Shown in pieces: positions 29,192 to 47,777 of a stretch of 64,000 nt of DNA. Position 1 is the first letter of the stretch; the number at the start of each line of letters is the position of its first letter. This DNA comes from Escherichia phage vB_EcoM_FJ1. Location of the stretch: the sequence record MZ170040.1; one strand, given 5' to 3'. The notes under the pieces are model-generated. The model made no database searches, had not been told where the DNA came from, and saw only the letters and a list, made by a program, of their open reading frames with translations. Position numbers and translations under genes: made by a program.

Positions 29192-29199
29192 GAGGACTT

Positions 29200-32100
29200 A
29201 TGGCTACTTTAAAACAAATACAATTTAAAAGAAGCAAAACCGCAGGTGCACGTCCTGCTGCTTCAGTATTAGCCGAAGGTGAATTGGCTATAAACTTAAA
29301 AGATAGAACAATTTTTACTAAAGACGATTCAGGAACTATCATTGATCTAGGTATTGCTAAAGGCGGTCAAATTGATGGAAATGTGACTATCAATGGTCTT
29401 TTAAGATTAAATGGGGATTATACACAAACTGGTGGAATGACCGTAAATGGACCTATTGGTTCTACTGAAGGCGTATCCGCCTTAGTTTTTAGATCTATGC
29501 GAGGGTCATTTTACGCAAGAGCAACAAATGATACTTCCAATGCCCATCTTTGGTTTGAAAATACAGATGGATCGGAGAGAGGTGTTTTATATTCAAAACC
29601 ACAGTCTGAAAATGAAGGCGTAATTACAATGCGTGTTCGCCAAGGAACCGCAGCAGGGGCTCAAAATTCAGAATTTCATTTCATTTCGACTGATGGTGGT
29701 ATTTTCCAGGCACGTAAATTAACTGCTTTAACTTCTATTAGTACACCAACTATTAGTGTTAATTTAATTAATCATGATTCTAAAGCCTTTGGGCAATACG
29801 ATTCACAATCATTGGTTCAGTATGTTTATCCTGGAACCGGTGAAACTAACGGAGTAAACTATCTTCGTAAAGTTCGTGCTAAATCTGGCGGCACTATATG
29901 GCATGAAATCTGTACAGCTCAGACTGGACAAGCTGATGAAATGTCATGGTGGACTGGTAAAACACCATTATTTAAACTATACGGTATTCGTAACGACGGT
30001 AGAATGATTATCCGCAATAGCTTGGCCATTGGTACTGTGACTGAAGGATACCCGTCAAGCGATTATGGAAATACCGGGGTAATGGGAGATAGGTATTTAG
30101 CTCTTGGCGATAATGCTTCTGGACTTAAATGGGTTCGTACTGGCGTTATTGACTTAATGGCTAACGGTATTTCTGCGGCGACTATTATTAATAATGGTAT
30201 TAATAGTACTAAAAAATTGATGGTCGGTTATAGCCGCGATTCTGGTACTACATGGGATTTTCCAAATAACAACCAAGCAATGTTTACTGCGCGTACCGAT
30301 ATTGATGGTAATAATAACGGTGATGGGCAAACTCATATCGGTTATAACAGTAATTCTAAAATGCATCACTATTTCCGTGGTACAGGTCGTATGGCTGTTG
30401 GTATGTCCCAAGGTCTCCTTGTTGAACCAGGAATTTTAGATATTAACACTGGTTCTAATAGAGTTGCTATTAGAGCAGATGGTACATTTGACTCAACCCG
30501 ACGTATTTCAATGCGTACTGGATTATTTTTATCAGGTGATGATAATACCAATGCTTTGTCATTTAAAGCTCCTACCGGTGTTGACGGAACCAAAACCATT
30601 AACTGGGATGCAGGCACTCGTAACGGACAGAATAAAAATACTGTTTCAATTAAAGCATGGGGTAATGCCTTTAACTCAGTTCCCGGTATTAGAGAAACTG
30701 TATTTGAAGTATATGATTCACAAGGTTATTATTTTTATTCACAACGCCAGCGCCCAGAAGGTTCTGAAACTGTTGGGCCCGTTGTAACCCAGTTCAATGG
30801 ACCAGTTAATGCTAACGGCTCTATTAGCACTGCAGGAAATCTTAAAGTTGATGGTTTAAGCACTTTAAACGGTAATGTTACAATGAAGAACGGCTTGTTT
30901 TTACAAGGTGGTTCTTCTATTACCGGCCAAGTTAAAATCGGCGGAACAACAAATGCATTGAGAATTTGGAACGCCGAATACGGTGCTATTTTCCGCCGTT
31001 CGGAAAGTAATCTTTATATTATTCCAACCAATCAAAATGAAGGCGAAAGTGGAGACATTCACAGCTCTTTGAGACCTGTGAGAATAGGATTAAACGATGG
31101 CATGGTTGGGTTAGGAAGAGATTCTTTTATAGTAGATCAAAATAATGCTTTAACTACTATAAACAGTAACTCTCGCATTAATGCCAACTTTAGAATGCAA
31201 TTAGGACAAAATGCTTATATAGACATTGAGGCTTCTGATGGAGTTCGCCCAACAGGTTGTGGTTCCTTTGCATCTCAGAATGACGTAAACGTCAGAGCTC
31301 CAATTTATATGAATATAGAGCGTACTGCTACTTCTGAATACATTCCTATTGTTAAACAACGGTATGTAAAGGGCGATAGTACTTATTCTATTGGTACCTT
31401 GATTTCTCAGGGAGACTTTCGCGTTCATTATCACCAGGGAACTAGCACCAATGGCGTAGATTTGAGTTGGGAATTCCGTCGCACAGGCGATTTCCGCGCG
31501 GCAGGTAAAATTATTGCCGGTGCTGCTACTCTTGGCACTGATGGTAATATCACGGGCGGTTCAGGAAACTTTGCTAACTTGAATACAACTTTAAACCGTA
31601 AAGTGAATTCTGGTTTTATTACTTATGGAGCAACTGCAGGTTGGTACAAGTTTGCAACAGTAACAATGCCTCAAGCTACATCAACCGTTTCAATTACAGT
31701 CACTGGCGGAAATGGATTTAATTCTGGATCATTTAATCAGTGCGCAATTTCTGAAATTGTTCTTCGTACAGGAAACAATACTCCTAAAGGATTAAATGCT
31801 GTTCTATATAGAAGAGGACTAAATTCATTTAGAGATATTGCTTGGGTTAATACATCTGGTGATACATATGACATTTATGTTAATATGGGAACATATGCTA
31901 ATCAGTTGATATTTAACTATAGTTCTGTTGATAACGCTACAGTTCAAATTATTGGCGCATTCAGTTCAGCCCAAAATCCTGTTGATGCATTGCCAGAAAC
32001 ATATATTAAAGGTCAGGTAGCAGATGTATTGACTAACTTAGTTGATTCTGGAAAAACGAAGCGTTTTGTTGCTGAATCTGAAATAGCTGTTAATAATCAA

Positions 32101-33156
32101 ACTGGATTACGTATTACGAGTAATGGTGATAAATCTGGTTCAAATTCAGTATTATTTAGAAATGACGGTGGAAGCTTCTATATTTTACTGACCGACAAAA
32201 ACTCTTCAGACGGCGATAATAAAGCAACTGAAGGTGATTGGAATGGAAAACGACCGTTTTCAATTGATATGACTGCTGGTACTGTTCGTCTTGGCGAAAA
32301 TACTTCTTTTGATAAAGATATTGTTATTAATGGAAACATTAATTCACGAGTTAAAGTTGCTGGACAGTGGAACGTCAGCTTTTCTTCTATTTCAGATGTG
32401 ACTCGCGACAATTCTGCATTCTTAGCGAATACTGGTGGCATTTCCAAGACAAGTCAAGCTTATTACCCGCTATTTTCTGGATACAGTTTTTTAACTGACG
32501 CAGGTTATCGCCAATCGTTTGAATTTGGATGGTTAGGTGTTTCTGGTACTTGGCGTCAAGGCATTATTCGCATGCGTGGTAACAACCCATCGGGGCAACA
32601 GGCTCGTTGGACTTTTGATATGGACGGAACATTTTATGCTCCTATACTATCATGTGGGTCTGCGAGAGCATTCGGTGTCAATACAACAAATGGATGGGGT
32701 GGTAACTCAATTGCGATAGGTGATAGTGATACTGGTTTTAGACAAGTAGGCGATGGGCTTTTAGAAACATGGGCAAACAACGTTAAGGTCGTTCGTTATA
32801 CTTCAAGTGAAGTTTATTCCGAGAAAAACGTCAACGCTCCTAACGTTTATATTCGTTCTGATATTCGTTTGAAATCTAATTTCAAGCCTATTGAAAACGC
32901 GCTCGAAAAGGTTGAACAACTTGATGGTTTAATCTATGACAAAGCTGAATATATAGGCGGTGAACCTGTCCAAACAGAAGCGGGTATTATAGCTCAAACG
33001 TTGCAAGACGTTTTACCAGAAGCTGTCCATGAAACAGAAGACAGTAAGGGTAATAAAATACTCACTGTTTCTTCTCAAGCCCAGATTGCTCTTCTGGTTG
33101 AAGCTGTGAAAACACTTTCTGCTCGTGTAAAAGAACTTGAATCTAAACTTATGTAA
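29200..33156 (+). CDS. 37: gp37 long tail fiber distal subunit with C-terminal intramolecular chaperone-like domain
   Basis: 1318 aa starting [43 protein letters not shown]; C-terminal ~100 aa ([29 protein letters not shown]...) resembles S74-type autoproteolytic chaperone domain. Confidence 0.85.
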
Positions 33157-33186
33157 AAGAGGGCTTCGGCCCTCTAAGGATTTTTA

Positions 33187-33993
33187 ATGGCAATTGTAGG
33201 TGTTCCTGGCTGGATTGGCGAATCTGCCGTGAATGAAACTGGACAACGTTGGATGGATGCTGCGATGAGAGCAGTTCGTGTTTCAGTTCCCGGTTGGATG
33301 AGTTCAATGGCAGGAAAGTCAGTTGAAAAAGCTTATTCAATTGGCTCAAATCATTCATATAATAAAGATACTTTAATTAATTGGCTTAAATCAATTGGAA
33401 CAGCTCCTGCTGTTGTAACAATAACAGGAGATATTGTTTCTAGTTCTTCAACTATTCCGTGCTTAGATTTTCCTAGTTCATTAACTAATGAATATGTGAC
33501 ATTGATTATTAACTCTGGCGTTACTGTTTATGGCCGAGGAGGTAATGGATCTGGATCTAGTGGAGGTTCTGGAGATGCTTTAGTTCGAGCAACTGCTGGT
33601 GGTACAGCGATTAATAATGGTATTGGTACACGCTTACGTATTACGAATAATGGCGCAATTGCTGGCGGCGGTGGTGGCGGCGGTGGTTGGTCCGTAGATT
33701 ATAACTTCACATTAGGTAATGTTGCTGGTGGTGGAGGCGGACGTCCTTTCGGTACTGGTGGTCGAGGTGGTCGAGGTAATGGTGGTAATGCATCGTTAAC
33801 CGCCGCAGGTGGTAAAGTAACTGTTGATGGTAATAACATGAGTGGTGCGGGTGGTAATGTTGGCTCAGCTGGTGGCGCTGCTGTTCGTACATCAAACTTT
33901 CAAACTAGTGGCGCTGGCGCTGCGGGTAAAGCTGTTACCGGAAATGCCCCAACATGGACTAAGGTTGGTACAATATACGGTTCAAGAGTATAA
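33187..33993 (+). CDS. 38: gp38 tail fiber adhesin, T2-type with glycine-rich motifs
   Basis: 268 aa, MAIVGVPGWIGESAVNETGQRWM... then poly-Gly blocks (AGGGGGGGGW, GGGGGRPFGTGGRGGRGNGG). Confidence 0.85.
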   Translation: MAIVGVPGWIGESAVNETGQRWMDAAMRAVRVSVPGWMSSMAGKSVEKAYSIGSNHSYNKDTLINWLKSIGTAPAVVTITGDIVSSSSTIPCLDFPSSLTNEYVTLIINSGVTVYGRGGNGSGSSGGSGDALVRATAGGTAINNGIGTRLRITNNGAIAGGGGGGGGWSVDYNFTLGNVAGGGGGRPFGTGGRGGRGNGGNASLTAAGGKVTVDGNNMSGAGGNVGSAGGAAVRTSNFQTSGAGAAGKAVTGNAPTWTKVGTIYGSRV

Positions 33994-34024
33994 TTTTGAA
34001 TAAATATCCTTAAAAGGAGGGTCT

Positions 34025-34681
34025 ATGGCAGCACCTAGAATATCATTTTCGCCCTCTGATATTCTATTTGGTGTTCTAGATCGCTTGTTCAAAGATAACG
34101 CTACCGGGAAAGTTCTTGCTTCCCGGGTAGCTGTCGTAATTCTTTTATTTATGATGGCGATTGTTTGGTATAGGGGAGATAGTTTCTTTGAGTACTATAA
34201 GCAATCAAAGTATGAAACATACAGTGAAATTATTGAAAAGGAAAGAAATGCACGCTTTGAATCTGTCGCCCTGGAACAACTCCAGATAGTTCATATATCA
34301 TCTGAGGCAGACTTTAGTGCGGTGTATTCTTTCCGCCCTAAAAACTTAAACTATTTTGTTGATATTATAGCATATGAAGGAAAATTACCTTCAACAATAA
34401 GTGAAAAATCACTTGGAGGATATCCTGTTGATAAAACTATGGATGAATATGCAGTTCATTTAAATGGACGTCATTATTATTCCAACTCAAAATTTGCTTT
34501 TTTACCAACTAAAAAGCCTACTCCCGAAATAAACTACATGTACAGTTGTCCATATTTTAATTTGGATAATATCTATGCTGGAACGATAACCATGTACTGG
34601 TATAGAAATGATCATATAAGTAATGACCGCCTTGAATCAATATGTGCTCAGGCGGCCAGAATATTAGGAAGGGCTAAATAA
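34025..34681 (+). CDS. t: holin T
   Basis: 218 aa, single N-terminal TM (VAVVILLFMMAIVWY) plus large periplasmic domain. Confidence 0.9.
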   Translation: MAAPRISFSPSDILFGVLDRLFKDNATGKVLASRVAVVILLFMMAIVWYRGDSFFEYYKQSKYETYSEIIEKERNARFESVALEQLQIVHISSEADFSAVYSFRPKNLNYFVDIIAYEGKLPSTISEKSLGGYPVDKTMDEYAVHLNGRHYYSNSKFAFLPTKKPTPEINYMYSCPYFNLDNIYAGTITMYWYRNDHISNDRLESICAQAARILGRAK

Positions 34682-34954
34682 TTATTTGTTCGTATACATC
34701 TCTAGATATCGATATACACCCTCAAAACCCTCGTTGAATTCGTCGATGAGGGTTTTCTTATCTTCTTGAGTTAATTCAGAAACAATTTTACGGAATGAAT
34801 TCTGATTTAATTTTCTACCTTCATGCGTTACTCCAATCTCATTCAGAAATGCAATAAAATTAGCACGATTCTCAACAATATCTTCTCTGGAAAATTTAAT
34901 CAAAATAGACGCAACAGTAATAATTTCACGAACTGTATCAATATTTTTATTCAT
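34682..34954 (-). CDS. asiA: AsiA anti-sigma70 factor
   Basis: 90 aa, MNKNIDTVREIITVASILIKFSREDIVENRANFIAFLNEIGVTHEGRKLN... Confidence 0.9.
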   Translation of the reverse strand: MNKNIDTVREIITVASILIKFSREDIVENRANFIAFLNEIGVTHEGRKLNQNSFRKIVSELTQEDKKTLIDEFNEGFEGVYRYLEMYTNK

Positions 34955-34966
34955 TAACTATACCAC

Positions 34967-35119
34967 TCAATTAGTTGACTTTGTTATAATATCATCAGAC
35001 GCTTGATTTGTAAACCGGTCTGTGTTATTTTCTTCAAAAATTTTTTCTACGAATTCCTTGAACGACTCACGTTCCTGAGCTGCATTATGCTCGATTACCT
35101 TTTCAAGATTATGACTCAT
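34967..35119 (-). CDS. small ORF (50 aa) between arn and asiA, not in ORF track
   Basis: MSHNLEKVIEHNAAQERESFKEFVEKIFEENNTDRF...; ATGA overlap with arn stop; hand-translated. Confidence 0.35.
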   Translation of the reverse strand: MSHNLEKVIEHNAAQERESFKEFVEKIFEENNTDRFTNQASDDIITKSTN

Positions 35120-35394
35120 TCGAAATAATCTTCAATTTCATAATCATGGACATAAATCATTATAGTTTTTAATACATCATCAATACTTTTTCCTGGAGCT
35201 GGAATTACGTAGAAATATCCTGCTTTTGAGAGGTCTTTATAAGTTCCAATCAAGAAATCATTATTCTCAAGATGTAGTTCTTCAACTAATTCATTAACAA
35301 TTGAATGGTATAGGTTTGGTAGAAACTTATATAGCTTTTCTAGAATATCAATTTTGATTGTGTATTGAACCACAGACTGAGAATCAATAATCAT
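35116..35394 (-). CDS. arn: Arn anti-restriction protein (McrBC inhibitor)
   Basis: 92-aa acidic protein, MIIDSQSVVQYTIKIDILEKLYKFLPNLYHSIVNELVEELH... Confidence 0.75.
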   Translation of the reverse strand: MIIDSQSVVQYTIKIDILEKLYKFLPNLYHSIVNELVEELHLENNDFLIGTYKDLSKAGYFYVIPAPGKSIDDVLKTIMIYVHDYEIEDYFE

Positions 35395-35477
35395 AGACCT
35401 TCCCCTTATGTTTCTGTTTGCGATTAGATTCTTTAAACGCTTTCTTCTTATCCTTATGAACAGAAGCTTTATTAAAA

Positions 35478-35696
35478 TTATGTTTTGCGACTAAATTGTT
35501 CATAGTGCTGAATTACCTCTCTTAAACATTTGCATGTGAATGAAAACTTTTTAGCTACACCACATTCAAATATATGTTCTCTTAAATCGCGTGTATCAGT
35601 ATATCCCATCTCAACAATAAAATGCCGTATTAGATTTTTATCTTTATCATTGAGAGAGTTAAAATAGTCAGATTTTGAATTAATTTCCCTGGCCAA
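35478..35696 (-). CDS. hypothetical protein
   Basis: 72-aa ORF. Confidence 0.5.
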   Translation of the reverse strand: MAREINSKSDYFNSLNDKDKNLIRHFIVEMGYTDTRDLREHIFECGVAKKFSFTCKCLREVIQHYEQFSRKT

Positions 35697-35976
35697 ATTG
35701 AATCACCTTCAGTTGACGTTTTAACTCTTTTATCATTTCTTCGTTCATCGCAATATAAAGATCACGTAAAGCAGGTTTTAGCGTTCCATTTATTGGAGAA
35801 CTAAATGGACATACATAATCTTTTCCTACAAGCTTTTTGGTGAATTCCATATCGCAGAACTTAAATCCCGGCTCATTGGTATAAATTCCCCAATTAGTTG
35901 ACATCATTTTATTGGCATATTCTAGTGCCTGGATTTGATTCATAATTCCATCAATTTGAAACTTTTTAATATTCAT
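35680..35976 (-). CDS. hypothetical protein
   Basis: 98-aa ORF. Confidence 0.5.
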   Translation of the reverse strand: MNIKKFQIDGIMNQIQALEYANKMMSTNWGIYTNEPGFKFCDMEFTKKLVGKDYVCPFSSPINGTLKPALRDLYIAMNEEMIKELKRQLKVIQFGQGN

Positions 35977-36437
35977 TAGTAAAGGTCCTCAGAGTAAAGT
36001 TCTTTTTCATTACCACCACGTTCAATACGTACTTGTCCAGCGTAAGTTGCAATAATCATTGCTTCTTCACGTGTCCAATAATTACTATATTGGTCAATAA
36101 ACCCTTGGTCATCATTACAAACTTGTTGAGTAACTAATTGAGGTTTAACTACATCTAAAACTTCTGCCATATCTTTAGAATAATGACGAGCACCTGGAAT
36201 AATAAGAGTTCGTCCATCTTTTAATTTAAAACGGTTGGCTGCACAGACAATTCGTCGTTGATACTTTTGGTTTTCATCCCAATACACAGTCTGCCAACAG
36301 ATTTCAGGAACTTCATCTAAAACATTTTGTTCTGTATATTCACCACCGTAAGAAGCTAATTTAGCAGCCAGACTTTCCGGAGTCTCACGAGATAAAGCTT
36401 TATCTAACAGAGCTAAACGTTCTTTAAAAGTTTTCAT
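35976..36437 (-). CDS. hypothetical protein
   Basis: 153-aa ORF. Confidence 0.5.
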
Positions 36438-36763
36438 TTAAACCATCCTTTAATACGTTGCCACAAAGTTTTCTGCTGAGCTTTGTTAACACCAATTGAG
36501 CGAATAACCGGTTGAGATTCCTGGAATTCTTTATAATCAGCAAGGTAAATTTCGTAAGCTGCATCTGTAAATGAACTTATCGCTGCCATAAAATTATTGC
36601 GAATACCTACTGGAGCATCTTTACTTTCACGAATAATCATGTATTTACCAGTCTTAATCTTTACGATAGTTCCAAGATAAGCTCCATGGTACCAAATATC
36701 CCAACCCTCTTGAGTAGGTTCTGCGCAACGACGAAGTTCATTAACAATTTCTAACTTGTTCAT
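36434..36763 (-). CDS. hypothetical protein
   Basis: 109-aa ORF. Confidence 0.5.
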
Positions 36764-36773
36764 TATTTATTCC

Positions 36774-37409
36774 TCACAGTTCAGATGCTACAGTGATTAC
36801 AGCTTCAATGTTTTCTGCCGAGCGTTTAATGTCAAGATACACATTACCGTTTTTAGCGATTTTACATGACATTCCGATATCAGTAAATTTCTGAATATGA
36901 TGTTCCATCATTTTGTATCCAAAAATTCGCATATTTCCATTGTTGTTAATTTCAAAATTACGAATTCCGTGAGTGCGTTTTTCTAAAATGGCAAGATAAT
37001 TACTACGATAAGTTTCAACCTTTTTAAGAACAAATCCATTTTCATCTAAAAGTTTTAACATGAGGTCTTTATCTTCTTCCATATCAGAAGTAATCTCACG
37101 AGCTTTACGAGTTGCTCGTTTTTTCAGCAGTTCTGGAGCATTTTCTTGTGCGTATAAAGTTGCTGCATTTGAAATAATATCCTGAGCTTCACCAGTAATG
37201 ATTAATCCATCACCAGATTTCTCCACCAGGCCTTTTTTAATCAATACCCCAATATTACTATTAACTACTGCGTTACCTAAATCTGGATGCACCTCACGAA
37301 CTTCTGCAGCTGTAATGAAATCTTTCTTAGCAATGGTAATTAAAATCGCAGCAGTTTTTTCATTCAGAACATCGTTAGAAGCTTTGATGATGTAAGTTAC
37401 TTTAGACAT
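36774..37409 (-). CDS. motA: MotA middle-transcription activator
   Basis: 211 aa, MSKVTYIIKASNDVLNEKTAAILITIAKKDFITAAEVREVHPDLG... Confidence 0.9.
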   Translation of the reverse strand: MSKVTYIIKASNDVLNEKTAAILITIAKKDFITAAEVREVHPDLGNAVVNSNIGVLIKKGLVEKSGDGLIITGEAQDIISNAATLYAQENAPELLKKRATRKAREITSDMEEDKDLMLKLLDENGFVLKKVETYRSNYLAILEKRTHGIRNFEINNNGNMRIFGYKMMEHHIQKFTDIGMSCKIAKNGNVYLDIKRSAENIEAVITVASEL

Positions 37410-37444
37410 TTTCTAATCTCCGTAATTCTGTATCAGTAGTTGAT

Positions 37445-37482
37445 AGTTGTATAGTACCACAGTATGCTTTGGTTGTAAACCG
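37445..37482 (-). promoter_or_regulatory. T4 early-type promoter upstream of motA (-35 GTTTAC, -10 TACTAT)
   Basis: minus strand GTTTAC 37475..37480, TACTAT 37451..37456. Confidence 0.55.
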
Positions 37483-37501
37483 TTTTGTGAAAAAATTTTT
37501 G

Positions 37502-37530
37502 AAATAAAAAAAGGGGAGCCGAAGCTCCCC
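37502..37530 (-). terminator. rho-independent terminator downstream of gene 52 region
   Basis: GGGGAGC-CGAA-GCTCCCC hairpin followed by T8 on minus strand. Confidence 0.65.
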
Positions 37531-37682
37531 AAAAATTACTGTTCAAACGCGATAACTATCGTGATAACACGCTGAATACCAAAAGCAAGAAGACCTCCTG
37601 CTACGGCTGGAACAACACCTACCCCCGCTAGTAAAATGCCGCCAGATACTAATGCTGCGCTTGTAATACCTACGAATGGGAC

Positions 37683-39011
37683 TCATTTGATTTCCTCTAA
37701 ATCTTTGGTGTATTCTGTAACTACATCAGTAGTTTTCCAATATTCGTTTTCTTCTTTCTTAGCTTTAGCTTCTTCAGCAAGTTTCTTTGCTTCGTCGGAA
37801 GTCATATGAAAAATATTCATTCCGACTAGTTTATCAACATAAGAAGAATACATATCGATTTTCGAAAGTTCTTCGGTCAGTTCTTTACGAGTTTTACCCT
37901 GCACAACGATTTCACCTGAAATTACTTTCTTAATGAAATGCGCCTTGGCAAAGGCTAAACGAAAAGCTGATTCAGTTTCTTTAATTTTGTTATCAATTCG
38001 TTTTTGAACATAAGTTTTACGAACTTCAACAAAGTCTTTAATTAAATCAACTACGTTATCGTAAACTTGTAGTTTTCCTTTCTCATTAATAACCGTAATA
38101 TTCTGAGAACGACGCTCAATCAACCCGAAGTCTTTCATGATTTTTGCATGGCGTTCTTCTTCATTATCACTCAAAGAGTATTCTTTGCGGAATTTAATTT
38201 TAAAGCCAAAACCATGCTCACCACAAGCATCATCCCATGTAATGAAGCCTTTATCTTCAAGCGGGTCTAAGATTTTACTCACGTAAGTTTCACGATCATA
38301 CTTATACGGAATCTCAGTGATATTCATTTGAGTTCGTGAAGTAAACTTGTACGTTCCACGAATTTCATATTGACCGTCAATTTCAACGACTTCACCGCGA
38401 AATTCTGGGAATTCTACCTTCGGTTTAGTTACTTTCTTTCCTTGAAGAGCTTGTAGTACAGCTTTCTTGACAGAAGAAACACTATGAGGAAGAATGTAAG
38501 TTGCATAACCAGTTGCAATACCGGAAACACCATTAAGAAGAACAGTAGGAATAATAGGCAAATAGAAAGCAGGCGGAATGTGTTCTTTATCTTGATGTAC
38601 TGGAGCATATTCAGTATCTTTATACACGTTATAGAAATTTTTACTTACACGAGCAAAAATATAACGACTTGCCGCTGCCTTTTGGACAGTACGAGAACCA
38701 AAGTTTCCTTGACCATCTAACAGAGGAAAGTTATTATTCCAAGTGTTAGCCATCAAAGCGCCCGCATCTTGTGCAGAGTTTTCGCCATGGTGATATCCAA
38801 GGTCCGCTACACCACCTGCAATAGAAGCAAGTTTGTGAAACTTATCTTTATTTCCTCGTGCTAAATCAAGGGCTCGAGCAATAACAAATCGTTGAACTGG
38901 CTTAAATCCATCAATCATATTTGGAATAGCACGATTTTCAACCGTGTACATAGCATAAGCCAATGCTTCATTATCAATGATACTTTTTAAATCACGATTA
39001 TTCAGTTGCAT
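37683..39011 (-). CDS. 52: gp52 DNA topoisomerase II medium subunit
   Basis: 442 aa, MQLNNRDLKSIIDNEALAYAMYTVENRAIPNMIDGFKPVQRFV...; GyrA-like N-terminal breakage-reunion region. Confidence 0.9.
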   Translation of the reverse strand: MQLNNRDLKSIIDNEALAYAMYTVENRAIPNMIDGFKPVQRFVIARALDLARGNKDKFHKLASIAGGVADLGYHHGENSAQDAGALMANTWNNNFPLLDGQGNFGSRTVQKAAASRYIFARVSKNFYNVYKDTEYAPVHQDKEHIPPAFYLPIIPTVLLNGVSGIATGYATYILPHSVSSVKKAVLQALQGKKVTKPKVEFPEFRGEVVEIDGQYEIRGTYKFTSRTQMNITEIPYKYDRETYVSKILDPLEDKGFITWDDACGEHGFGFKIKFRKEYSLSDNEEERHAKIMKDFGLIERRSQNITVINEKGKLQVYDNVVDLIKDFVEVRKTYVQKRIDNKIKETESAFRLAFAKAHFIKKVISGEIVVQGKTRKELTEELSKIDMYSSYVDKLVGMNIFHMTSDEAKKLAEEAKAKKEENEYWKTTDVVTEYTKDLEEIK

Positions 39012-39015
39012 AAAT

Positions 39016-39156
39016 TTACCATACTAGTGAATGTAGTGCCATAATAACATCAGAAATGAAAAGCACGACTTGAATTAATCCGAACATTACTCCATAATAT
39101 AGTGCTACCAATAAAGTAGCAAGGGCTAATGAATAGCCCAAGATTTTCTTAATCAT
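39016..39156 (-). CDS. small hydrophobic membrane peptide (46 aa), not in ORF track
   Basis: hand-translated MIKKILGYSLALATLLVALYYGVMFGLIQVVLFISDVIMALHSLVW. Confidence 0.5.
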   Translation of the reverse strand: MIKKILGYSLALATLLVALYYGVMFGLIQVVLFISDVIMALHSLVW

Positions 39157-39307
39157 TAGTAGATAACAACACAAATGTTAAATATGCACACATACCCTGG
39201 GCTAAAGCTTGTGAAAACACACTGCTAGCATCGATACAGATAGTTAAAACACATGCTACTATCCAACAAATAAATGAAATAACTCCTAATAATTTTGCAA
39301 TATTCAT
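39149..39307 (-). CDS. small hydrophobic membrane peptide (52 aa; ac-like position), not in ORF track
   Basis: hand-translated MNIAKLLGVISFICWIVACVLTICIDASSVFSQALAQGMCAYLTFVLLSTND. Confidence 0.5.
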   Translation of the reverse strand: MNIAKLLGVISFICWIVACVLTICIDASSVFSQALAQGMCAYLTFVLLSTND

Positions 39308-39314
39308 ATTTTCC

Positions 39315-39395
39315 TCACTGGCGTCCGAAGACGCCTTTAGTTTTAAGATTGTTACGATAGAACTGCATCACGTGTTCGTTATGGAAATTACTCAT
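39315..39395 (-). CDS. stp: Stp peptide (activator of host PrrC anticodon nuclease)
   Basis: hand-translated 26 aa [26 protein letters not shown]; start overlaps ndd stop (TAATG). Confidence 0.8.
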
Positions 39396-39850
39396 TAATA
39401 TGCCTGCAAAACAAATTTAAAGTTATCAGCCAACATACGGTTCATTTCTTCAAGTGTTTGATACTCAGAATGATGATTACGAGTAAACGCTAAAGCTAAC
39501 TGACCCTTTCCAAATCCCGTCGTCAGAGGTTTCATCTTAGAAGCAGGCAAATAAAATACCGTGTATGGAACATTGTTATTTGCAATAGTACGCGCAAGCT
39601 GAGACCGACGTTGACGAATATGACTTAAAACCGCACTGAATCCTTGCTTAGAACGCTGATTACCTACATAAAATCGTGCAGACACACATGGATTACTAAA
39701 TGGACGACCATCTAATTTACTTACTAAAAAGTAAAATCCAGGTTTAGATAAAATATCTTTATGTGGAACTCCCAAAAACCATTCACCGTTCTTGATTGTA
39801 CCAATAACAGTAGCGCCTGCGTTGTTCAGATCAGTAACAGTCATATATTT
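39395..39850 (-). CDS. ndd: Ndd nucleoid disruption protein
   Basis: 151 aa from [28 protein letters not shown]...; ORF track start 39901 is upstream Met. Confidence 0.8.
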
Positions 39851-39913
39851 CATATTAATTTCCTCTAAATTATTTTCTACTCCAAGGCCGCATGAATACA
39901 CGCGGCCATTAAA

Positions 39914-40129
39914 TTAATCGTCGCAGTCGACGCTCAATTCCCAAAACTCTTCTACGGTATAAGTTTCAGTATCATTTTCAATACAGAAACGTTCATTACT
40001 GTTATTTGCTAAAGTAGCGTTAACTGTCATTTTCTCGCTGGTGCTCTTAAGAGGTGAAATACGAATTAACTGATCACCACTATCCAAGCAAAAAATTTCA
40101 CCAACTTTTACATCTTTAAAACTTTTCAT
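39914..40129 (-). CDS. hypothetical protein
   Basis: 71-aa acidic ORF. Confidence 0.5.
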   Translation of the reverse strand: MKSFKDVKVGEIFCLDSGDQLIRISPLKSTSEKMTVNATLANNSNERFCIENDTETYTVEEFWELSVDCDD

Positions 40130-40244
40130 AATTCACCTCAAGGAGTATAAAATCCAAATGCAGTTGTTGACCATCCCATCCAATATGGAAAATTTGCGCC
40201 AATGTAAAACATAAGAATATAAAACCAAATGTTTAGTAAATTCA

Positions 40245-40463
40245 TCATTTTACACCATTCCAAATTGTTTCAACCACAGATTTTAAACCATTTTGATGAA
40301 TGTCCATTCCGACTACCGCCATCAAATAGATTCCAACTACAACTGAACCTAAGGCAAAAATCAGCATGAAAATGAATAAAGCCGGAAAAATATTATCGAA
40401 AAACCATTCAATAAATGTAAAAGCACTGCGTTTACGCTTCATATTTTCCTCACATAAATCCAA
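40245..40463 (-). CDS. small membrane protein
   Basis: 72 aa with hydrophobic stretch IFPALFIFMLIFALGSVVVGIYLMAVV. Confidence 0.5.
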   Translation of the reverse strand: MDLCEENMKRKRSAFTFIEWFFDNIFPALFIFMLIFALGSVVVGIYLMAVVGMDIHQNGLKSVVETIWNGVK

Positions 40464-40698
40464 AGTAAGCGTTTAATACATCAATCATTAAAACGATTGG
40501 GAATATACTCAAAACTACTAGTATTATAACTACATTCCATATAGCTTTAACAATCTTTTTCATTTTCTGTTCCTCCGTAGTTGATAGGGTAATAATACCA
40601 CAGAGGAACAGTCTTGTAAACAACTTTTTTAAAAATATTCGTAATAAATGTGAATACCAACTACTACCGCTGAAACTTGTGCAACCCACCACGCACAA
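40450..40698 (-). CDS. small membrane protein
   Basis: 82 aa with two hydrophobic stretches. Confidence 0.45.
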   Translation of the reverse strand: MCVVGCTSFSGSSWYSHLLRIFLKKLFTRLFLCGIITLSTTEEQKMKKIVKAIWNVVIILVVLSIFPIVLMIDVLNAYFGFM

Positions 40699-40806
40699 GC
40701 AATAAGTACAGAATTCAAAATTTTCATAATAACCTCATCACAAAAGTAAATGTTAAACAAATTAATGGAATACTAATTAACCAAACAAAACACCACCATA
40801 ATGAAC

Positions 40807-41070
40807 TCATAGTTCAATCTCAATGATTTCAAGATTATTTTCTTTAATAGCTTTCTTTAAATCATCGTAAATAAGAACTTCCCAAGAATTGTTTAAATCA
40901 CCATTCAACAAACGCTCTTGTTGCAATTTATCAGTAAGATATGGTTGATCTGATTCATATTTAGACAATCCCAATGAAATAAATGATGTTGCATCATCAA
41001 TTTCAGAATATTGTACATAAACAAATTCACCTGTGATTTTATGTTTAACATAAAAGAATTTAAATTTCAT
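40807..41070 (-). CDS. hypothetical protein
   Basis: 87-aa ORF. Confidence 0.5.
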   Translation of the reverse strand: MKFKFFYVKHKITGEFVYVQYSEIDDATSFISLGLSKYESDQPYLTDKLQQERLLNGDLNNSWEVLIYDDLKKAIKENNLEIIEIEL

Positions 41071-41146
41071 TTTTGTTCCTCCGTAGTTGATAGGGTAATA
41101 GTACCACGGTCCTTGTGGTATGTAAACCGTTTTGTGAAAAATTTTT

Positions 41147-41704
41147 TTAAATGGAAAGATACCATCCGTTGTAGTTGCTTTTTCTTACAACTTTACGAAG
41201 GTCTTCTCTGTCACCGATGAACTTCGGAGTGTACTGGATGACACCTGGATGAATTTCTTTAGTGTTGAATATAATTATACAGTCAGCGACCTGATGATTC
41301 AGAATGGGCCCTAGATTTATTCCAGAACCATATGGATACTCTCCGCTGCATCCTGTTGTAACCGAAATCCAACGTGAGTCAGTTTGATGTGTCTTAACTT
41401 CTACACGAAGCCCACAGTATTTTGGATGCGCCAATACATCCCATGCATATGTGTACGGATCATCGACATCTTCTTGACCTTTGTTAACATACCCGCTTAG
41501 CCAATCTGCTACAAAAAATTCTGCGTACACAGCGATACGACATCTTTCAATAACTTCTGCTTTATCCTGGTTCGGGTTTTGTTTTAAAGAGTATCTTGCT
41601 GTATCAGCAATTTTGACCTTCATTTCACTAGTCAAGTCACTGTTCGATAGGGTAAATGTCGGAATCTGAAATAGTCTCTGTAAACCCGGATTCGTTTTCT
41701 GCAT
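41147..41704 (-). CDS. denB: endonuclease IV
   Basis: 185 aa at the T4 denB position downstream of rIIB; length identical to T4 DenB. Confidence 0.65.
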   Translation of the reverse strand: MQKTNPGLQRLFQIPTFTLSNSDLTSEMKVKIADTARYSLKQNPNQDKAEVIERCRIAVYAEFFVADWLSGYVNKGQEDVDDPYTYAWDVLAHPKYCGLRVEVKTHQTDSRWISVTTGCSGEYPYGSGINLGPILNHQVADCIIIFNTKEIHPGVIQYTPKFIGDREDLRKVVRKSNYNGWYLSI

Positions 41705-41966
41705 TTAGACTTTCCTTTTTACCACTGAGATAGGCGTTATATACTTTAAGAGTGCCGTAATAAATTCGGTCATTTTCATCTAAAGACTCGCGGTCAAGTT
41801 CATCGAGCTCCTTTTTATCCATGACTATAACATTATTACAGTAAAGAAACCCAAGTTTTTCGTGACCAAACTCAAATTTATTACAGTACACAATATTAGC
41901 GTGATGATTTCCGTGTAGTTTAATCTCTTTTATGTCGGAATCACCGATATTCATACAATAAATCAT
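41637..41966 (-). CDS. hypothetical protein
   Basis: 109-aa ORF overlapping denB start. Confidence 0.45.
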   Translation of the reverse strand: MIYCMNIGDSDIKEIKLHGNHHANIVYCNKFEFGHEKLGFLYCNNVIVMDKKELDELDRESLDENDRIYYGTLKVYNAYLSGKKESLNAENESGFTETISDSDIYPIEQ

Positions 41967-41982
41967 AATTTTTCCTTAAAAC

Positions 41983-42002
41983 AAAAGGGCCGAAGCCCTT
42001 TA
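41983..42002 (-). terminator. GC hairpin with flanking T-runs (possible bidirectional terminator)
   Basis: AAGGGC-CGAA-GCCCTT flanked by T-rich tracts on both strands. Confidence 0.45.
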
Positions 42003-42004
42003 TT

Positions 42005-42226
42005 TTACTTGAATTGTGCAATTCTTTTCTCTAAACAATCTGCGTAAGATTTCATTGAGATAAACTGTGAAAGCAGCAGTTCTTGCTCAACTGCACTAAC
42101 TGTTAAAAACTTTGCGCTTTCTAAAAATTTGCTCAGTGCATTAATTTTGAGCATTAATTGATCGTATTCTTCTTTTACTCGTGCTTGATAACCTAACATA
42201 ATTTTCCTTAATGCGATAAGGGCCAA
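42005..42226 (-). CDS. hypothetical protein
   Basis: 73-aa ORF directly downstream of rIIB. Confidence 0.5.
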   Translation of the reverse strand: MALIALRKIMLGYQARVKEEYDQLMLKINALSKFLESAKFLTVSAVEQELLLSQFISMKSYADCLEKRIAQFK

Positions 42227-42231
42227 AGCCC

Positions 42232-43170
42232 TTATTTAAATTGTTCAGTAACGTCTTCAACTACTTCGTATTGGCAGGTACGCATTTTAGCGTCGTTGTA
42301 ATCAATCGGAATTGATACTACATCGCGAGGATGTACTTTAACTTTTACAACTCGGCTGGTTGAACTACCAAAGTGACGAATATAAGATTTAGAACACACA
42401 TGCAGACCACGAGAACAAGTTTGTGTATCATCGTCGTTCACACGAGTACGTGGCATTTTAACTACTTTACCCGGACTGTTATCAAAGGTATTTGAGTGAC
42501 AGTCAAAGTAATTGCTACGAACTACTTTCCAAGCATAGAAGTAACCATCTTCTGTAATTTCAATATCGTTTGCTACCAAGAAATCAAAGAGTCGAGATAC
42601 CGCTTTTTGGTTTGGGTTTTCCAACAGATTTTCCAAGAACGGAAAATAAAATTCAAAGTTTTCGCCTTTTTCCATCGAGTCAAGAATACGACCAACCAAA
42701 CCAGACCGCAATTCAATATTTTGATAGAACAAGCTTCCACCTTCAATTCGAACATCGCCGGAAATATATTTTTCAACAGCGCGACGAACATTAATTTTTT
42801 GTGCCGCTTCTTCTAACTTATCCGCTACAAGCAGATTAAGAATTTCCTGGAAGTTTGAATGAGTATTAGGAGTTGCGTTATAAGTTACACCGTCAACAGT
42901 AATTGAAATGAATTTTTTAGATGCATTCCAAATAATATCAGATTTAGCAACCGGAGCAATAACTGCATCGCTATTAACTTTAACTGTAATATCACCTCTA
43001 ATAGTAACTTTAGGGCGTTTAGCTTCTTCAGCATTTTTCAAAACACGACGGATTGTGTCAACCGATACATCCTTCCAATAAGCCAATTCCTGTTGAGTGT
43101 AATTACCGCTTGAATACAGTTTAACAATTTCAGCTTGTTCGTTTTTGGTCAGGCATTTAATATTGTACAT
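42232..43170 (-). CDS. rIIB: rIIB membrane-associated protein
   Basis: 312 aa, MYNIKCLTKNEQAEIVKLYSSGNYTQQELAYWKDVSVDTIRR...; immediately downstream of rIIA. Confidence 0.9.
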   Translation of the reverse strand: MYNIKCLTKNEQAEIVKLYSSGNYTQQELAYWKDVSVDTIRRVLKNAEEAKRPKVTIRGDITVKVNSDAVIAPVAKSDIIWNASKKFISITVDGVTYNATPNTHSNFQEILNLLVADKLEEAAQKINVRRAVEKYISGDVRIEGGSLFYQNIELRSGLVGRILDSMEKGENFEFYFPFLENLLENPNQKAVSRLFDFLVANDIEITEDGYFYAWKVVRSNYFDCHSNTFDNSPGKVVKMPRTRVNDDDTQTCSRGLHVCSKSYIRHFGSSTSRVVKVKVHPRDVVSIPIDYNDAKMRTCQYEVVEDVTEQFK

Positions 43171-43181
43171 AATTTTCCTTA

Positions 43182-45359
43182 TTAGGCCGCAAGGGCCTTC
43201 ATAGTTTTAGCGATTTGGGAAACTTCATCATCACTTAAAGAGTTGCGATAACCGATGAAGTCGGAAACAATACGGAATTTCTTGGTAAACTCAGCAACCA
43301 TTTTATCACTATTTTTTGAAGCATTACGTGATAATTCATCAAAGAGATTAGTTACTGTCCAGATGTCATGACCGATGGTATCTTTTCCACCATTAAAATA
43401 TACACCCTGTAATGAACTAACCATATTACCAAGTCGTGTATATTCTTCAGAAACTTCATCTGTACTGAAGTACTTCATCATAAAATCTAGTTCAGGATAC
43501 TTGATAATTTTATCAATATATCGTTTAGCTGAACTTGAATAACCTACATACTTATCATAATCTACAGCATCAAAAGCATCTACATATAAATCACGCAAAG
43601 CTTCAAAAATACATTGGCACTGACCGAGTTCTTTTACCTTTTTCTGTAAAAGCGGACGAATAACATAAAATTCATTAATGCCAATAAGATTAGCCATACG
43701 AATCAAAATATTCATAGATGGATGACAAAGAGATGTAGTACCATCCATAGAGAAAATATCAGAACGATGCATATACGCTACATAACCAGTAATTTCATCT
43801 GCTTCTGACGTGAGTGTAAATAGTTCCTCTTTTTCCCAGCGCCCATCTTTAATTTCAAACTTAAATGCTGTAGCAGCTTTAGGACGAGGAGCTTTACTTT
43901 TAACTACCTTTGGAATATAGCTTTTAACTAAAGCTTCAATTTCTGACAAATAATGAATGTTAACTTCATCACTTTCAAACATTGCCATAATATCAGGAAG
44001 TAAATCAATCTGCGATTCTACTTCTGGATTAATAAACAGAAGACGCTCATTATGATGAATATTCAAAGTGTTATTAAATTCACTATCATCTAACGCTCGT
44101 GCTAATCCACGAACAATATTAACACGATTTTTAATATTATCAATAACGATATTAATTTTTGTTGTATTAATACCAAACAGACGATAACTTGATGCAACGG
44201 CTGAAGTTTCATGACTTTGCTTAATACGTTTCAGTCGAGGGTCAAGATTTACTTCATACACAACTCCTGCATTGCATAACTTACTATCAGGTTCAAACAT
44301 GCTTTGCATCTTCTTATATGACAGATTTTTAGTCGTGAATTTGACTGAATTACTAATCATATAATCTCGAGCAGAATATCCCATCTTCATCAATTCACGA
44401 TATGTGTGACGAGGAGATGTAGATTCTTTAAATCGTTTTACATCTTCATTAAATGCTTTCTCACTGAGTTCTTTAACTCGTTCAATAATATTTTTACGAG
44501 TACGATCATCCAGTGAAAGAGCCTCGCGAGATGGAGCAATATCAAGTGAACCCATTGGAAACTTAATGTAATTCACTTCATTGCGAATGCTTAGCCAGTT
44601 ACGGTCTCTAATAACACCATCGATAGGATAAACAATACCGCCATAGATAGCATATAATCCACCACGATCAGGCCAGTATCTTTCTGGATTTACGCCGTAA
44701 TAGTCATCGAAATTCGGAAAATAATCAATTTCGCGGTCAAGACCATTAATGATAGCCAAATCTTTGAACGGTCGCATGATATAAGAAACTTCATAAGCAA
44801 AGTTTCTAAAGTCTTTTTCTTCAACTGGAACTACGATTTCAATACCAGTTTTATCATCTGGACCCATTTCTTTTACGAATGTAGGTTTAATCTGTGGACC
44901 ATCACCATCCATGTAAGCTACATAACCGCGAATTTCACCTTTATGATACGAAGTAATACTAAATGTATCAGTATAACTAAATGGAGATTTAGAACCTAAA
45001 CCAAATCCGCCAATGAAATCGTTAGATTCAGCCTTAGATGAACTGAAGTATGAATTATACAGCCCAGGAGAATTATCATCACCCTGAATATCAAAATCAC
45101 TCATACCCGGACCAAAATCTCGGCAAACAAATCGTGGATCTAAACGTCCAGGAACTTGAATGATAAATTTTTCAGGATTTCCATTGAGAGCATGAGCATC
45201 AATCATGTTAGTAATTAATTCACGGACTACTGCGCGAATTTTGTTTGTATACAAATCAGATGACAGAATTTTAAATACTTTAGGAGATGCTGTGATGCTA
45301 AATGCTTTTGATTTAGAACCATTACCAAGAATTGTTTCTTTTTCAGTGGTGATAATCAT
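43182..45359 (-). CDS. rIIA: rIIA membrane-associated protein
   Basis: 725 aa, [51 protein letters not shown]... (GHKL-like ATPase motifs). Confidence 0.9.
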
Positions 45360-45369
45360 AATTTCCTCA

Positions 45370-45573
45370 TTAATTCATATTACGCTTAATAACTTCAGCA
45401 ACTTCTAGTAGTTCATCTTTAGTTGCGGTGTCGGATTGAATTTTATCTCTAATATCTTTAAAGCGGTTTTTAAATTCTTCGGCTTCTCCCATATCGAAAA
45501 AGCGTTGAATGATTCTATATTCTCGATGAACTGCTTTATCAAAAAGTTCTAAATTTACTTTATATGATTTCAT
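45370..45573 (-). CDS. hypothetical protein (rIIA.1-like)
   Basis: 67-aa ORF between 39 and rIIA. Confidence 0.5.
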
Positions 45574-45627
45574 TTCAATATCCTCATTTGCCCAATTAAT
45601 TATACCACATCCTTGTGGTAAAGTAAA

Positions 45628-47448
45628 CTACTGACTCATCCATTCTTTGCGAAGGTCAGCATTATCTCCCATGAGCATTTCAAAAAGCTCTTTCCAATTC
45701 TCAGGAAGTTTAACAACATCATATACTGGGTTTTGAATCATCTCACGATATTCAGATTTTTCCAAAGAGCCAAGTCCCTTAATATAACGGATGCTATGTT
45801 TAGGTAGAGCATCTTTAGCACTCTCATATTCAGCGACTGTATAAAACCATTCTTGTTTTTTACCGACCTGAGCGATGATTACAGGAGTTTTGACAAAGCG
45901 AATTCGTCCTTGCTCAAACAATTCTGGCCAATTACTAAAAAACCCGAGCAGAGAAGGATAAATGCTTCCTAAACCATCATGGTCAGCATCAGTCATAATA
46001 GCAATATTATGATAATTCAAGTTTTCAGCTTTTTCACCAAGAACTAGACCAGTGATTGCGCAAATATCAAATAGTTCTTTGTTTTTAAGCATATCAGCAT
46101 ATGACATACCCCAACTGTTGAGAACTTTACCGCGCAATGGATAACCACCATGAAGTTCTTTATCACGAACATCAATAAGATATCCGATAGCAGAATCACC
46201 CTCAGTCAAGAAAAGAGTAGTGTCAGCATCTTTACCGCAAAGATTCGCTTTGATATGTTTATGAACTTTAGCTTTAGAAGCCTTTTTAGCTGCTTTAGTT
46301 TCAGCTGCTTTTTCTGCTGCCAATTTACGGGCCAAGGCAGCTTCAATAATTGGCATCAAAATAGCTTCATTATTTAGAATAGCGCGTGAAATCTTTTTAG
46401 CATCAAGCTGAATATGACTACGAATTTCGCCAAATGGAGAAGTCAAACGCTCTTTAGTTTGAGAATCAAATCGCATGTTTTTCATATCACGAACAAACAT
46501 AACGATAGTCAAACATTCTTTAACACGTGCTTTAGTTACATCAATTTTGAATTTACGTTTGATTTGTGGAATAAGGTCTTCACAAATATCATCCATCACG
46601 CAGTCAATGTGATGGCCACCATTCTTAGTATGAATGTTATTGACGTACGTCAACTGACGAAAACCATCAGGTGAACGACCAACCGCAATAGAACAATTTT
46701 CTTGTTCTTGAACGATAGCATGTTCATCATACTGTCGTGCATATTTCTTAAAATTGCCCTGAACCTTTTTACCATTAAAGGTAAATTGAATATCAGGATA
46801 AACAACAGCAAGTGTCTGGAGACGATCTAATGTAATGTCAAGATAAACTTGGGACAGCTCATTAGTTTCAAATGACATAAAATCAGGAATGAAAGTAACA
46901 CGAGTTCCTTTCCATTTTCCTGGAATAGTTTCCCATGATTTATTTTCCATGCCGTTTGAACAACGAACTACAATATTATTTTGACCATCGCCAGTTTCAC
47001 CGACAAACATCACAGAAAAAATGTTTGTCAAACTAGAACCAACACCATTCATACCGCCAGTGACGCGTTCTTTATCATCACCGAAGTTACCACCTGCTTT
47101 TGGAATAGTCCATGCAGCAACAGGACCAGGAATTTCTTCACCGGTAGGTGTTTTAACCATCGCCTGTGGAATACCGCGACCGTTATCTTCAACTGTTACT
47201 TGATTGTTTTTAATAGTAACATTAATTTTATTTGCGAATTTAAACTTAGTACGAATACCTTCATCTACTGAGTTATCGATAATTTCATCAATAAGCTTAA
47301 CAAGACCAGGTACATACTGAACACTTTCCCATTTACCAAACAGAAAGCGCTCATGCATTTCATTAGCAGAAGAACCAATGTACATGCCGCTACGCTTTTT
47401 GATATGTTCAATATCGCTCAGAATTTTAATTTCATTCTTAATCATCAC
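45628..47448 (-). CDS. 39: DNA topoisomerase II large subunit, single uninterrupted ORF (39 and 60 equivalents fused)
   Basis: 606 aa; GyrB-like ATPase N-terminus (IKILSDIEHIKKRSGMYIGS) through TOPRIM (LFLTEGDSA, TDADHDG) in one frame. Confidence 0.9.
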   Translation of the reverse strand: MMIKNEIKILSDIEHIKKRSGMYIGSSANEMHERFLFGKWESVQYVPGLVKLIDEIIDNSVDEGIRTKFKFANKINVTIKNNQVTVEDNGRGIPQAMVKTPTGEEIPGPVAAWTIPKAGGNFGDDKERVTGGMNGVGSSLTNIFSVMFVGETGDGQNNIVVRCSNGMENKSWETIPGKWKGTRVTFIPDFMSFETNELSQVYLDITLDRLQTLAVVYPDIQFTFNGKKVQGNFKKYARQYDEHAIVQEQENCSIAVGRSPDGFRQLTYVNNIHTKNGGHHIDCVMDDICEDLIPQIKRKFKIDVTKARVKECLTIVMFVRDMKNMRFDSQTKERLTSPFGEIRSHIQLDAKKISRAILNNEAILMPIIEAALARKLAAEKAAETKAAKKASKAKVHKHIKANLCGKDADTTLFLTEGDSAIGYLIDVRDKELHGGYPLRGKVLNSWGMSYADMLKNKELFDICAITGLVLGEKAENLNYHNIAIMTDADHDGLGSIYPSLLGFFSNWPELFEQGRIRFVKTPVIIAQVGKKQEWFYTVAEYESAKDALPKHSIRYIKGLGSLEKSEYREMIQNPVYDVVKLPENWKELFEMLMGDNADLRKEWMSQ

Positions 47449-47514
47449 TTATCCTCGTTTGGTTTCGGGAATATTATACTCCGGTAATCATAAAGCTAAA
47501 GGCCCGAAGGCCTT

Positions 47515-47775
47515 TTATTTAAAACGAATAGTTGAATCCTTAAAGAACAGCCCAGAACATACTGTTCCTTCTACTTTCTGCCCAGTAGGTCCAATAGCAC
47601 GAAATCCAGTATGCTGGAAATCATTTTCAGAGCAACCGAACCAGTTATATCCAGTGATTTCAATATTAGTAAAACCACTTGAAGACAAAACTTTGGTTGC
47701 ATTATCAGCATCAGTACATCCTATTAAAGACACTGCTAATACTAATGCTGCGATAGAACGATTAATATATTTCAT
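47515..47775 (-). CDS. putative lipoprotein
   Basis: 86 aa; signal peptide with lipobox LIGC; SD AAGGG upstream. Confidence 0.55.
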   Translation of the reverse strand: MKYINRSIAALVLAVSLIGCTDADNATKVLSSSGFTNIEITGYNWFGCSENDFQHTGFRAIGPTGQKVEGTVCSGLFFKDSTIRFK

Positions 47776-47777
47776 AA

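Follow-up and report, generated by a model that had tools for sequence, protein, structure and literature searches.

An extra cytosine at codon 3 of motA.1 as the probable source of the start-less hydrophobic frame behind gene 52 in Escherichia phage vB_EcoM_FJ1

The start-less hydrophobic reading frame found directly behind gene 52 of Escherichia phage vB_EcoM_FJ1 is, with a probability that we put at about 0.93, the body of the known gene motA.1, put out of register with its ATG by a single surplus C; that the frame sits in the register of gene 52 is, at the same probability, a by-product of this one-nucleotide insertion and not a recoding device. An earlier sequence-only reading of the same DNA missed that this is an annotated T4 gene, into which one nucleotide is inserted here and in no other genome searched. 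A single C inserted into the C-run of codon 3 (CC to CCC) would move the ATG into a meaningless Arg-rich frame, and the gene body, otherwise untouched, would fall by coincidence, past the TGA, into the register of gene 52, so that one extra base would account both for the ATG being out of the hydrophobic frame and for the body being in that of gene 52.

Layout of the locus

The window, by which we mean the whole 64,000-nt stretch of record MZ170040.1 that was analysed, derives from a T4-like phage (Tequatrovirus), and genes on its minus strand run in the order ndd, stp, ac, gene 52, the hydrophobic region, a terminator and motA (Table 1). The gp52 of the window, with Pfam domain PF00521, is found as an identical protein on 15 public contigs and aligns end to end with the gp52 of ECO78 at 99.5% identity, while its MotA protein, with PF09114 and PF09158, is found unchanged on many contigs.

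Table 1. Features of the gene 52-motA.1-motA region, in window coordinates
Feature	Position	Strand	Basis and remarks
Gene 52, DNA topoisomerase II medium subunit, 442 aa	37683..39011	-	ORF list
Gene 52 stop codon TGA	37685-37683	-	ORF list
Shine-Dalgarno GAGG	37694..37697	-	Read from sequence; inside the 3' end of gene 52
motA.1 start codon ATG	37684..37686	-	Sequence and annotated orthologues; ATGA overlap with gene 52 stop
C-run CCC (GGG on the plus strand)	37678..37680	-	Alignment with relatives; codon 3, one surplus C
Hydrophobic frame, read as motA.1 body (codons 3-49 and TAA stop)	37536..37679	-	PHROG 3487, tblastn
Arg/Ser/Cys-rich ORF, 47 aa, opened by the ATG	37543..37686	-	ORF list
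Intrinsic terminator GGGGAGC-UUCG-GCUCCCC + T7	37503..37530	-	Terminator scan
motA, activator of middle transcription, 211 aa	36774..37409	-	ORF list; downstream neighbour fixing synteny

Reading past the TGA in the frame of gene 52, we found 48 codons (37682-37539) that encode VPFVGITSAALVSGGILLAGVGVVPAVAGGLLAFGIQRVITIVIAFEQ and are followed by a TAA at 37538-37536. This agrees with what the sequence-only reading had described, namely 48 hydrophobic in-frame codons behind the gene 52 stop, and the peptide has a GRAVY of 1.58 as against -0.80 for the Arg-rich frame. A codon check bore out the statement that the hydrophobic frame contains not one ATG, GTG or TTG, and the ATG that overlaps the stop does open an Arg/Ser/Cys-rich frame of 47 aa, as had been claimed. 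The strong terminator reported just after the hydrophobic frame is also present: the hairpin at 37530-37513 has a 7-bp stem with six G-C pairs and a UUCG loop, a T7 tail follows, and the structure closes the 52-motA.1 transcription unit. The G+C content of the motA.1 region is 0.467 compared with 0.355 for the genome.

We considered whether a start-less open frame is significant in its own right and rejected the idea, because the window contains 388 stop-to-stop intervals that are 48 codons or longer, and 25 of them have no canonical start. A start-less open stretch of such length is not rare in this window, and the hydrophobic frame stands out from chance by its homology and by the selection on it, not by the absent start.

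Identity of the hydrophobic frame and distribution of the extra C

The gene motA.1 is recorded as T4p263, NP_049874.1, UniProt P39512 / Y16H_BPT4, Pfam PF26886 (Phage_T4_Y16H) and PHROG 3487, and its coding sequence in T4 occupies 163730..163879 of NC_000866. In T4, UFV-AREG1, RB32 and PP01 the annotated gene is 150 nt long, begins with the ATG that forms part of the ATGA overlap and specifies a product of 49 aa, MSPF[V/I]GITSAALVSG..., which is the hydrophobic peptide of the window with Met-Ser added in front. The hydrophobic frame matched positions 3-49 of PHROG 3487 (a 49-position profile with no assigned function) at E = 7.7e-26, and in a tblastn comparison residues 3-49 of ECO78 MotA.1 aligned to 37679-37539. 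When we compared the locus by megablast with 50,697 phage records, it was matched in several hundred Tequatrovirus genomes. Its place is also that of motA.1, directly after gene 52 and ahead of the terminator and motA; the T4 gene likewise lies between gene 52 and motA, and the ATGA overlap, the Shine-Dalgarno sequence and the downstream terminator are all alike. The difference is that in T4 the ATG is joined to the gene body, whereas in the window the extra C at codon 3 breaks this link.

Removing one C gives an intact product of 49 aa, MSPFVGITSAALVSGGILLAGVGVVPAVAGGLLAFGIQRVITIVIAFEQ, which shares 98% identity with P0001 and is set apart from the UFV-AREG1 protein by a single residue. Among 5.8 billion proteins searched, all 16 clusters of the MotA.1 family were 82-98% identical to this repaired peptide, and every one of them begins with MSPF, carries PF26886 and falls within 47-68 aa; the start-less 48-aa frame as it stands is 77-96% identical to the family (alignment A2), and over residues 3-49 the identity to family members is 83-98%. 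A local Pfam hmmscan returned no family for the peptide and likewise none for the MotA.1 of T4 itself, a miss that was probably caused by composition filtering or by the local model set. The PF26886 assignment accordingly means the precomputed matches, which are available for every orthologue, and not the local scan, which did not recover the model. As sequenced, the window has no intact ORF of about 49 codons beginning at the ATG of the ATGA overlap, the frame from this ATG reading MSPIRRYYKR... instead. The locus is therefore orthologous to motA.1 but is a frameshifted allele and not an intact family member.

Focusing on the inserted base, the window reads ATGAGTCCCATTC where relatives read ATGAGTCCATTC. 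Alignment with UFV-AREG1, RB32 and PP01 (alignment A1) contained a single gap column, located at the C-run, and was otherwise 93-98% identical. In the relatives examined, the hydrophobic frame is offset by -1 from that of gene 52 and is opened directly by its own ATG. A 43-mer centred on CCC had no exact match among 489 matching phage genomes, and in its best matches 43 query bases were aligned to 42 record bases. After removal of one C, the same 489 genomes were matched at 95% identity or more, 11 of them exactly; all 60 rows of this control 43-mer sampled across the ranking were ungapped, with the identity bands raised by exactly one difference. The CCC allele thus appears to occur in 0 of the 489 phage genomes. 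Loci that we fetched individually gave the same picture (30 with CC, 0 with CCC), and these 30 include 10 contigs with the exact gp52 of the window and 10 with its exact MotA. An exact scan of IMG/VR, JGI metagenomes and GTDB genomes with a CCC 20-mer gave zero matches. As to how close the available relatives are, the best identity in a 20-kb megablast was 94-95%, and contigs sharing the exact gp52 or MotA of the window were at most 96.6% identical across the locus. At the motA.1 segment the nearest sequences were UFV-AREG1 (98.2%) and L037 (97.2%), both of which read CC.

Coding potential and expected expression of motA.1

The sequence-only reading had proposed comparing the two frames in homologues, and named a conserved Arg-rich frame beside an interrupted hydrophobic one as the outcome that would refute it; the comparison came out the other way, on the side of the hydrophobic frame. 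Across 15 distinct orthologue DNA sequences, 23 of the 34 variable columns fell on third positions of this frame (7, 4 and 23 columns at the first, second and third codon positions). The ratio of synonymous to non-synonymous differences among the same 15 sequences was 707:323 in the hydrophobic frame, compared with 120:927 and 91:938 in the other two, the latter being the Arg-rich frame. These counts point to purifying selection on the hydrophobic frame and to none on the Arg-rich frame. Combined with the invariant MSPF, the Shine-Dalgarno sequence and the ATGA overlap, the excess of third-position variation makes a good comparative case for motA.1 as a genuine protein-coding gene.

The segment AGAGGAAATCAAATGAGT, in which the GAGG lies 7 nt upstream of the ATG within the ATGA overlap, was identical in 30 of 30 loci. 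We infer from this arrangement that motA.1 would be translationally coupled to gene 52: ribosomes finishing gp52 would restart on motA.1 by way of the overlap and the Shine-Dalgarno sequence inside gene 52, and the transcript would end at the hairpin terminator just past motA.1. Ancestral motA.1 has the same layout as the ATGA-coupled overlapping genes that are common in phage and bacterial operons, in which the Shine-Dalgarno sequence also lies in the upstream gene; in the window, by contrast, such coupling would bring ribosomes into the wrong frame. Distant T4-like phages (L009-L014) keep an ATGA or TTGA overlap at this place, with a small ORF of different sequence. In relatives the stem of the terminator is maintained and its loop is variable. 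A literature search for motA.1 turned up only a terminator table, that of phage UFV13, which lists the hairpin as the 'motA.1' terminator (PMC5931544).

The MotA.1 peptide is rich in glycine and alanine and almost uncharged, containing a single Arg and no more than one acidic residue. An AlphaFold2 model built on a shallow family alignment consists of a single helix spanning residues 2-47 (pLDDT 85.7), and this predicted helix would be compatible with a membrane helix or with a helical hairpin in an oligomer. MotA.1 is most likely a small inner-membrane peptide. The earlier suggestion of a small membrane protein holds in part, in that the hydrophobic frame is the true coding frame by its PHROG 3487 match and by selection, and is not supported in the mechanisms that were invoked for its synthesis. 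In T4, motA.1 is transcribed early, and shotgun proteomics did not pick up its protein (PMC9697503, Table S2), which is unsurprising for a hydrophobic peptide of 5 kDa. Since protein-level evidence for MotA.1 is lacking even in T4, the status of the gene rests on comparative evidence.

Alternative readings and the origin of the extra base

Two mechanisms had been offered for the hydrophobic frame in the sequence-only reading, a membrane tail on gp52 made by UGA readthrough, and a small protein made by non-canonical initiation or frameshifting. Neither survived the comparison with relatives, in which an ordinary ATG opens the hydrophobic frame directly, so that no readthrough, odd initiation or frameshifting is needed. 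The least improbable alternative is a functional +1 ribosomal frameshift at CCC-A, in which translation would begin AUG AGU CCC, the P-site tRNA-Pro would slip from CCC to CCA, and decoding would continue with UUC GUA GGU. Such a slip would yield exactly the wild-type MSPFVG... of MotA.1, CCC and CCA both coding for proline, and at CCC-A the tRNA in the P site can indeed pair perfectly again after moving by +1. Rare AGG codons follow soon after CCC-A in the ATG frame, and T4 carries a tRNA-Pro(UGG). Start-proximal CCC-N is a known error-prone site: in E. coli, +1 frameshifts have been reported at a frequency of about 1% for CCC-C at codon 2 (Gamper et al. 2015; PMC4519876), and CCC-A shifted fastest and most in vitro when native tRNA-Pro(UGG) was used (PMC4519876). 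As in these errors and in the programmed +1 frameshift of prfB, the window has a slippery site, here CCC-A near the start codon, and a +1 slip at it would restore MotA.1, but it has neither a stimulatory Shine-Dalgarno sequence at prfB-like spacing nor a slow A-site codon, and the arrangement is not conserved. From its GAGG to CCC there are 13 nt where prfB has about 3, the A-site codon after CCC is the common AUU and neither a stop nor a hungry codon, and slippage would take place at codon 3 instead of codon 2. The arrangement that would require a frameshift was seen in no other sequence searched and was therefore not selected as a device. An expected slippage yield of about 1% of normal or less would amount to leakiness and not to a mechanism. 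It is conceivable that some MotA.1 leaks through by slippage at CCC-A, at error level at best; we regard it as highly improbable that the C is real and that useful MotA.1 is made in this way, possibly helped by a phage tRNA-Pro(UGG), and hold the frameshift reading as a whole to be improbable to the same degree. If it were true, this would be a natural frameshift allele rescued by start-proximal CCC-N slippage.

Slippage by RNA polymerase was considered and rejected, three consecutive Cs being much too few. The remaining routes are more remote. Readthrough of the UGA would extend some gp52 by 49 residues (the residue inserted at UGA and those of the 48 codons), and the hydrophobic tail would anchor this fraction to the membrane. 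A single UGA does stand between gene 52 and the in-frame hydrophobic codons in the window, and gp52 is entered as 'membrane-associated' in the RB32 record. No stop codon of E. coli is leakier than UGA, but this one is followed by G, UGA-G is not known as a leaky context, and no stimulatory structure is evident downstream. The window resembles the programmed UGA readthrough of Qbeta A1 in that a single UGA parts a complete gene from open codons in the same frame; it differs in that an indel unique to this genome made the in-frame relation, and in having no fused homologue. None of the 5.8 billion proteins is a gp52-length protein with a MotA.1 tail, the family running from 47 to 68 aa. Because the hydrophobic frame in relatives is one base off that of gene 52 and has its own ATG, the in-frame relation in the window is an accident of the insertion. 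A weaker variant, in which readthrough yields a minor membrane-tailed gp52, is conceivable; as an account of the locus, however, readthrough is very unlikely. Less probable again is initiation or reinitiation within the hydrophobic frame at GUC or at the AUU of 37667, which would give a membrane peptide with an altered N-terminus. Near-cognate AUU codons are present in this frame at 37667, 37637 and 37577, and ribosomes terminating at the UGA of gene 52 would be at hand for reinitiation. However, a canonical ATG with a Shine-Dalgarno sequence at 7 nt in the same place would capture initiation, the first in-frame AUU (37667) is 26 nt from the Shine-Dalgarno sequence, and no near-cognate start was found at a compatible spacing free of a competing canonical start. 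Starting at AUU would also lose the MSPF that is invariant in the family, and an arrangement with a non-canonical start is not conserved in the relatives (30 loci).

The least probable reading takes the Arg/Ser/Cys-rich 47-aa frame as a real product, a new basic peptide. This frame has an ATG, a good Shine-Dalgarno sequence and 47 open codons, and it is open in several relatives as well, but it is interrupted by a stop in another (L008), and its substitutions among relatives are overwhelmingly non-synonymous. It gave no PHROG or Pfam match, and an exact look-up found its product absent from 153 billion gene positions. E. coli uses seven of its codons rarely; four of these are AGG, and CGG is also among them. 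We conclude that it stays open through composition, as a consequence of the G/C-rich Gly/Ala/Val codons in the true frame, and that the ORF is an out-of-frame by-product and not a gene; judged by the comparative data, the reading as a real product is effectively refuted.

With a frameshifted motA.1 as the preferred reading, which no observation spoke against, the remaining question is whether the extra C arose in the phage or in the record. The gene has no lesion besides the extra C, and the change is therefore either recent or artefactual. Of the 72 ECO78 coding sequences with a counterpart in the window (9.1-57.7 kb), 71 aligned end to end in one frame with no stops, the exception being motA.1, which is separated from its start. 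This speaks against an assembly that is indel-prone overall and makes a real mutation somewhat more likely, which leaves room for leaky expression. We consider the odds to be a little better than even that the C is real and stems from a recent frameshift mutation in a gene that the phage can do without, and there is a considerable if smaller chance that it is an isolated homopolymer error in the deposited sequence.

For the annotation of this phage, the result is a correction: the locus holds a single-base frameshift in an annotated gene of the T4 family and not a recoding signal, and gene callers will miss motA.1 here or call a spurious Arg-rich ORF. If the base is real, motA.1 would be inactive or nearly so in FJ1, making the phage a natural motA.1 null or strong hypomorph. 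The phage would then have been isolated under conditions that make the gene dispensable, and FJ1 would offer a ready-made strain for probing a conserved, uncharacterised membrane peptide.

Start-less frames and natural variants of motA.1

Across the six frames of the whole window, ATG, GTG and TTG are all absent from 25 of the intervals that run from one stop codon to the next over 48 codons or more. With that many in an AT-rich genome, a long open frame without a start, a property that the sequence-only reading had noted for the frame after the gene 52 stop, is a weak criterion on its own. Length variants occur among the MotA.1-family protein clusters (members P0015 and P0016), one of 68 and one of 47 residues. 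The 68-aa protein departs from the family near the C-terminus and ends in an extension of 19 aa with unrelated sequence, as though translation had run past the usual stop. The 47-aa protein has lost two residues from its first hydrophobic segment. Some lesions are tolerated by motA.1 in nature. Misannotation of the orthologues is widespread in public records, with labels such as "transcriptional regulator", "flagellar motor protein MotA" and "periplasmic protein", which apparently derive from the gene name with no evidence behind them; the annotation of PHROG 3487 itself is "unknown function".

Local signals and relationship to other phages

The terminator-like hairpin inside motA.1 (see table) shows no sequence variation across all aligned relatives and codes for AGGLLAF; its invariance is probably mere coding constraint. 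The promoter-like site, located 3′ of the motA.1 terminator and before motA, fits the early promoter expected for motA. In some relatives an insertion of approximately 330 bp with a 75-aa ORF, for which no Pfam match was found, separates the motA.1 terminator from motA; this insertion is missing from the window. Among the collections searched, the closest 20-kb matches to window positions 28000-48000 were ECO78 and slur02/04 (94-95% identity), and the motA.1 segment was nearest to UFV-AREG1 (98.5%). The window lacks counterparts of two ECO78 CDSs (L026 30678-30884 and 37594-37965). The phage is a mosaic Tequatrovirus.

Coordinates of features at and around motA.1 and gene 52 (L numbers, fetched loci of related phages; H3 and H4, phage records matching the locus)
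Feature	Location	Strand	Basis or remark
Tiny hydrophobic ORF at gene 52 stop	L009:2113-2195; L010:2113-2195; L012-L014:2115-2190 (IMG/VR)		Compare window 37536-37686
ac, tiny hydrophobic ORF	39149..39307	minus	PF26944 in orthologues
52.1-like tiny hydrophobic ORF	39016..39174	minus	DUF7396 / PF24129 in L018
Terminator-like hairpin with AGGAGG, AGCAGGAGGTCTTCTTGCT then TTTGG	37584-37602	minus	Terminator scan
Promoter-like site, TTTACA, 17 nt, TACTAT, extended -10 TG	37451-37479	minus	Sequence scan
75-aa ORF in ~330-bp insertion	L016, L018:3611-3838; L027, L032, L035, L036:868-1095; also H3, H4

Small hydrophobic ORFs flanking gene 52

Tiny hydrophobic ORFs also adjoin gene 52 upstream (window 39016-39307, minus strand), placing the gene among clustered ORFs for small predicted membrane peptides. 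On the downstream side, more distant T4-like phages whose gp52 is 58-85% identical to that of the window also carry a tiny hydrophobic ORF, with a start codon that shares bases with the stop of gene 52 as TTGA or ATGA (L009, L010 and L012-L014). The encoded peptides, LSALALGFLGAIAALVIWLYWLDNHD (26 aa) and MIEFYLIIGSVIAVFGLVLLLLS (23 aa), are shorter than MotA.1 and look unrelated to it in sequence. Another locus, L011 (gp52 74% identical), encodes a diverged 49-aa homologue beginning MSVFVGLTNAALFSG. Conservation here may be positional, with gene 52 keeping a coupled small membrane peptide even in phages where the sequence of that peptide has been replaced.
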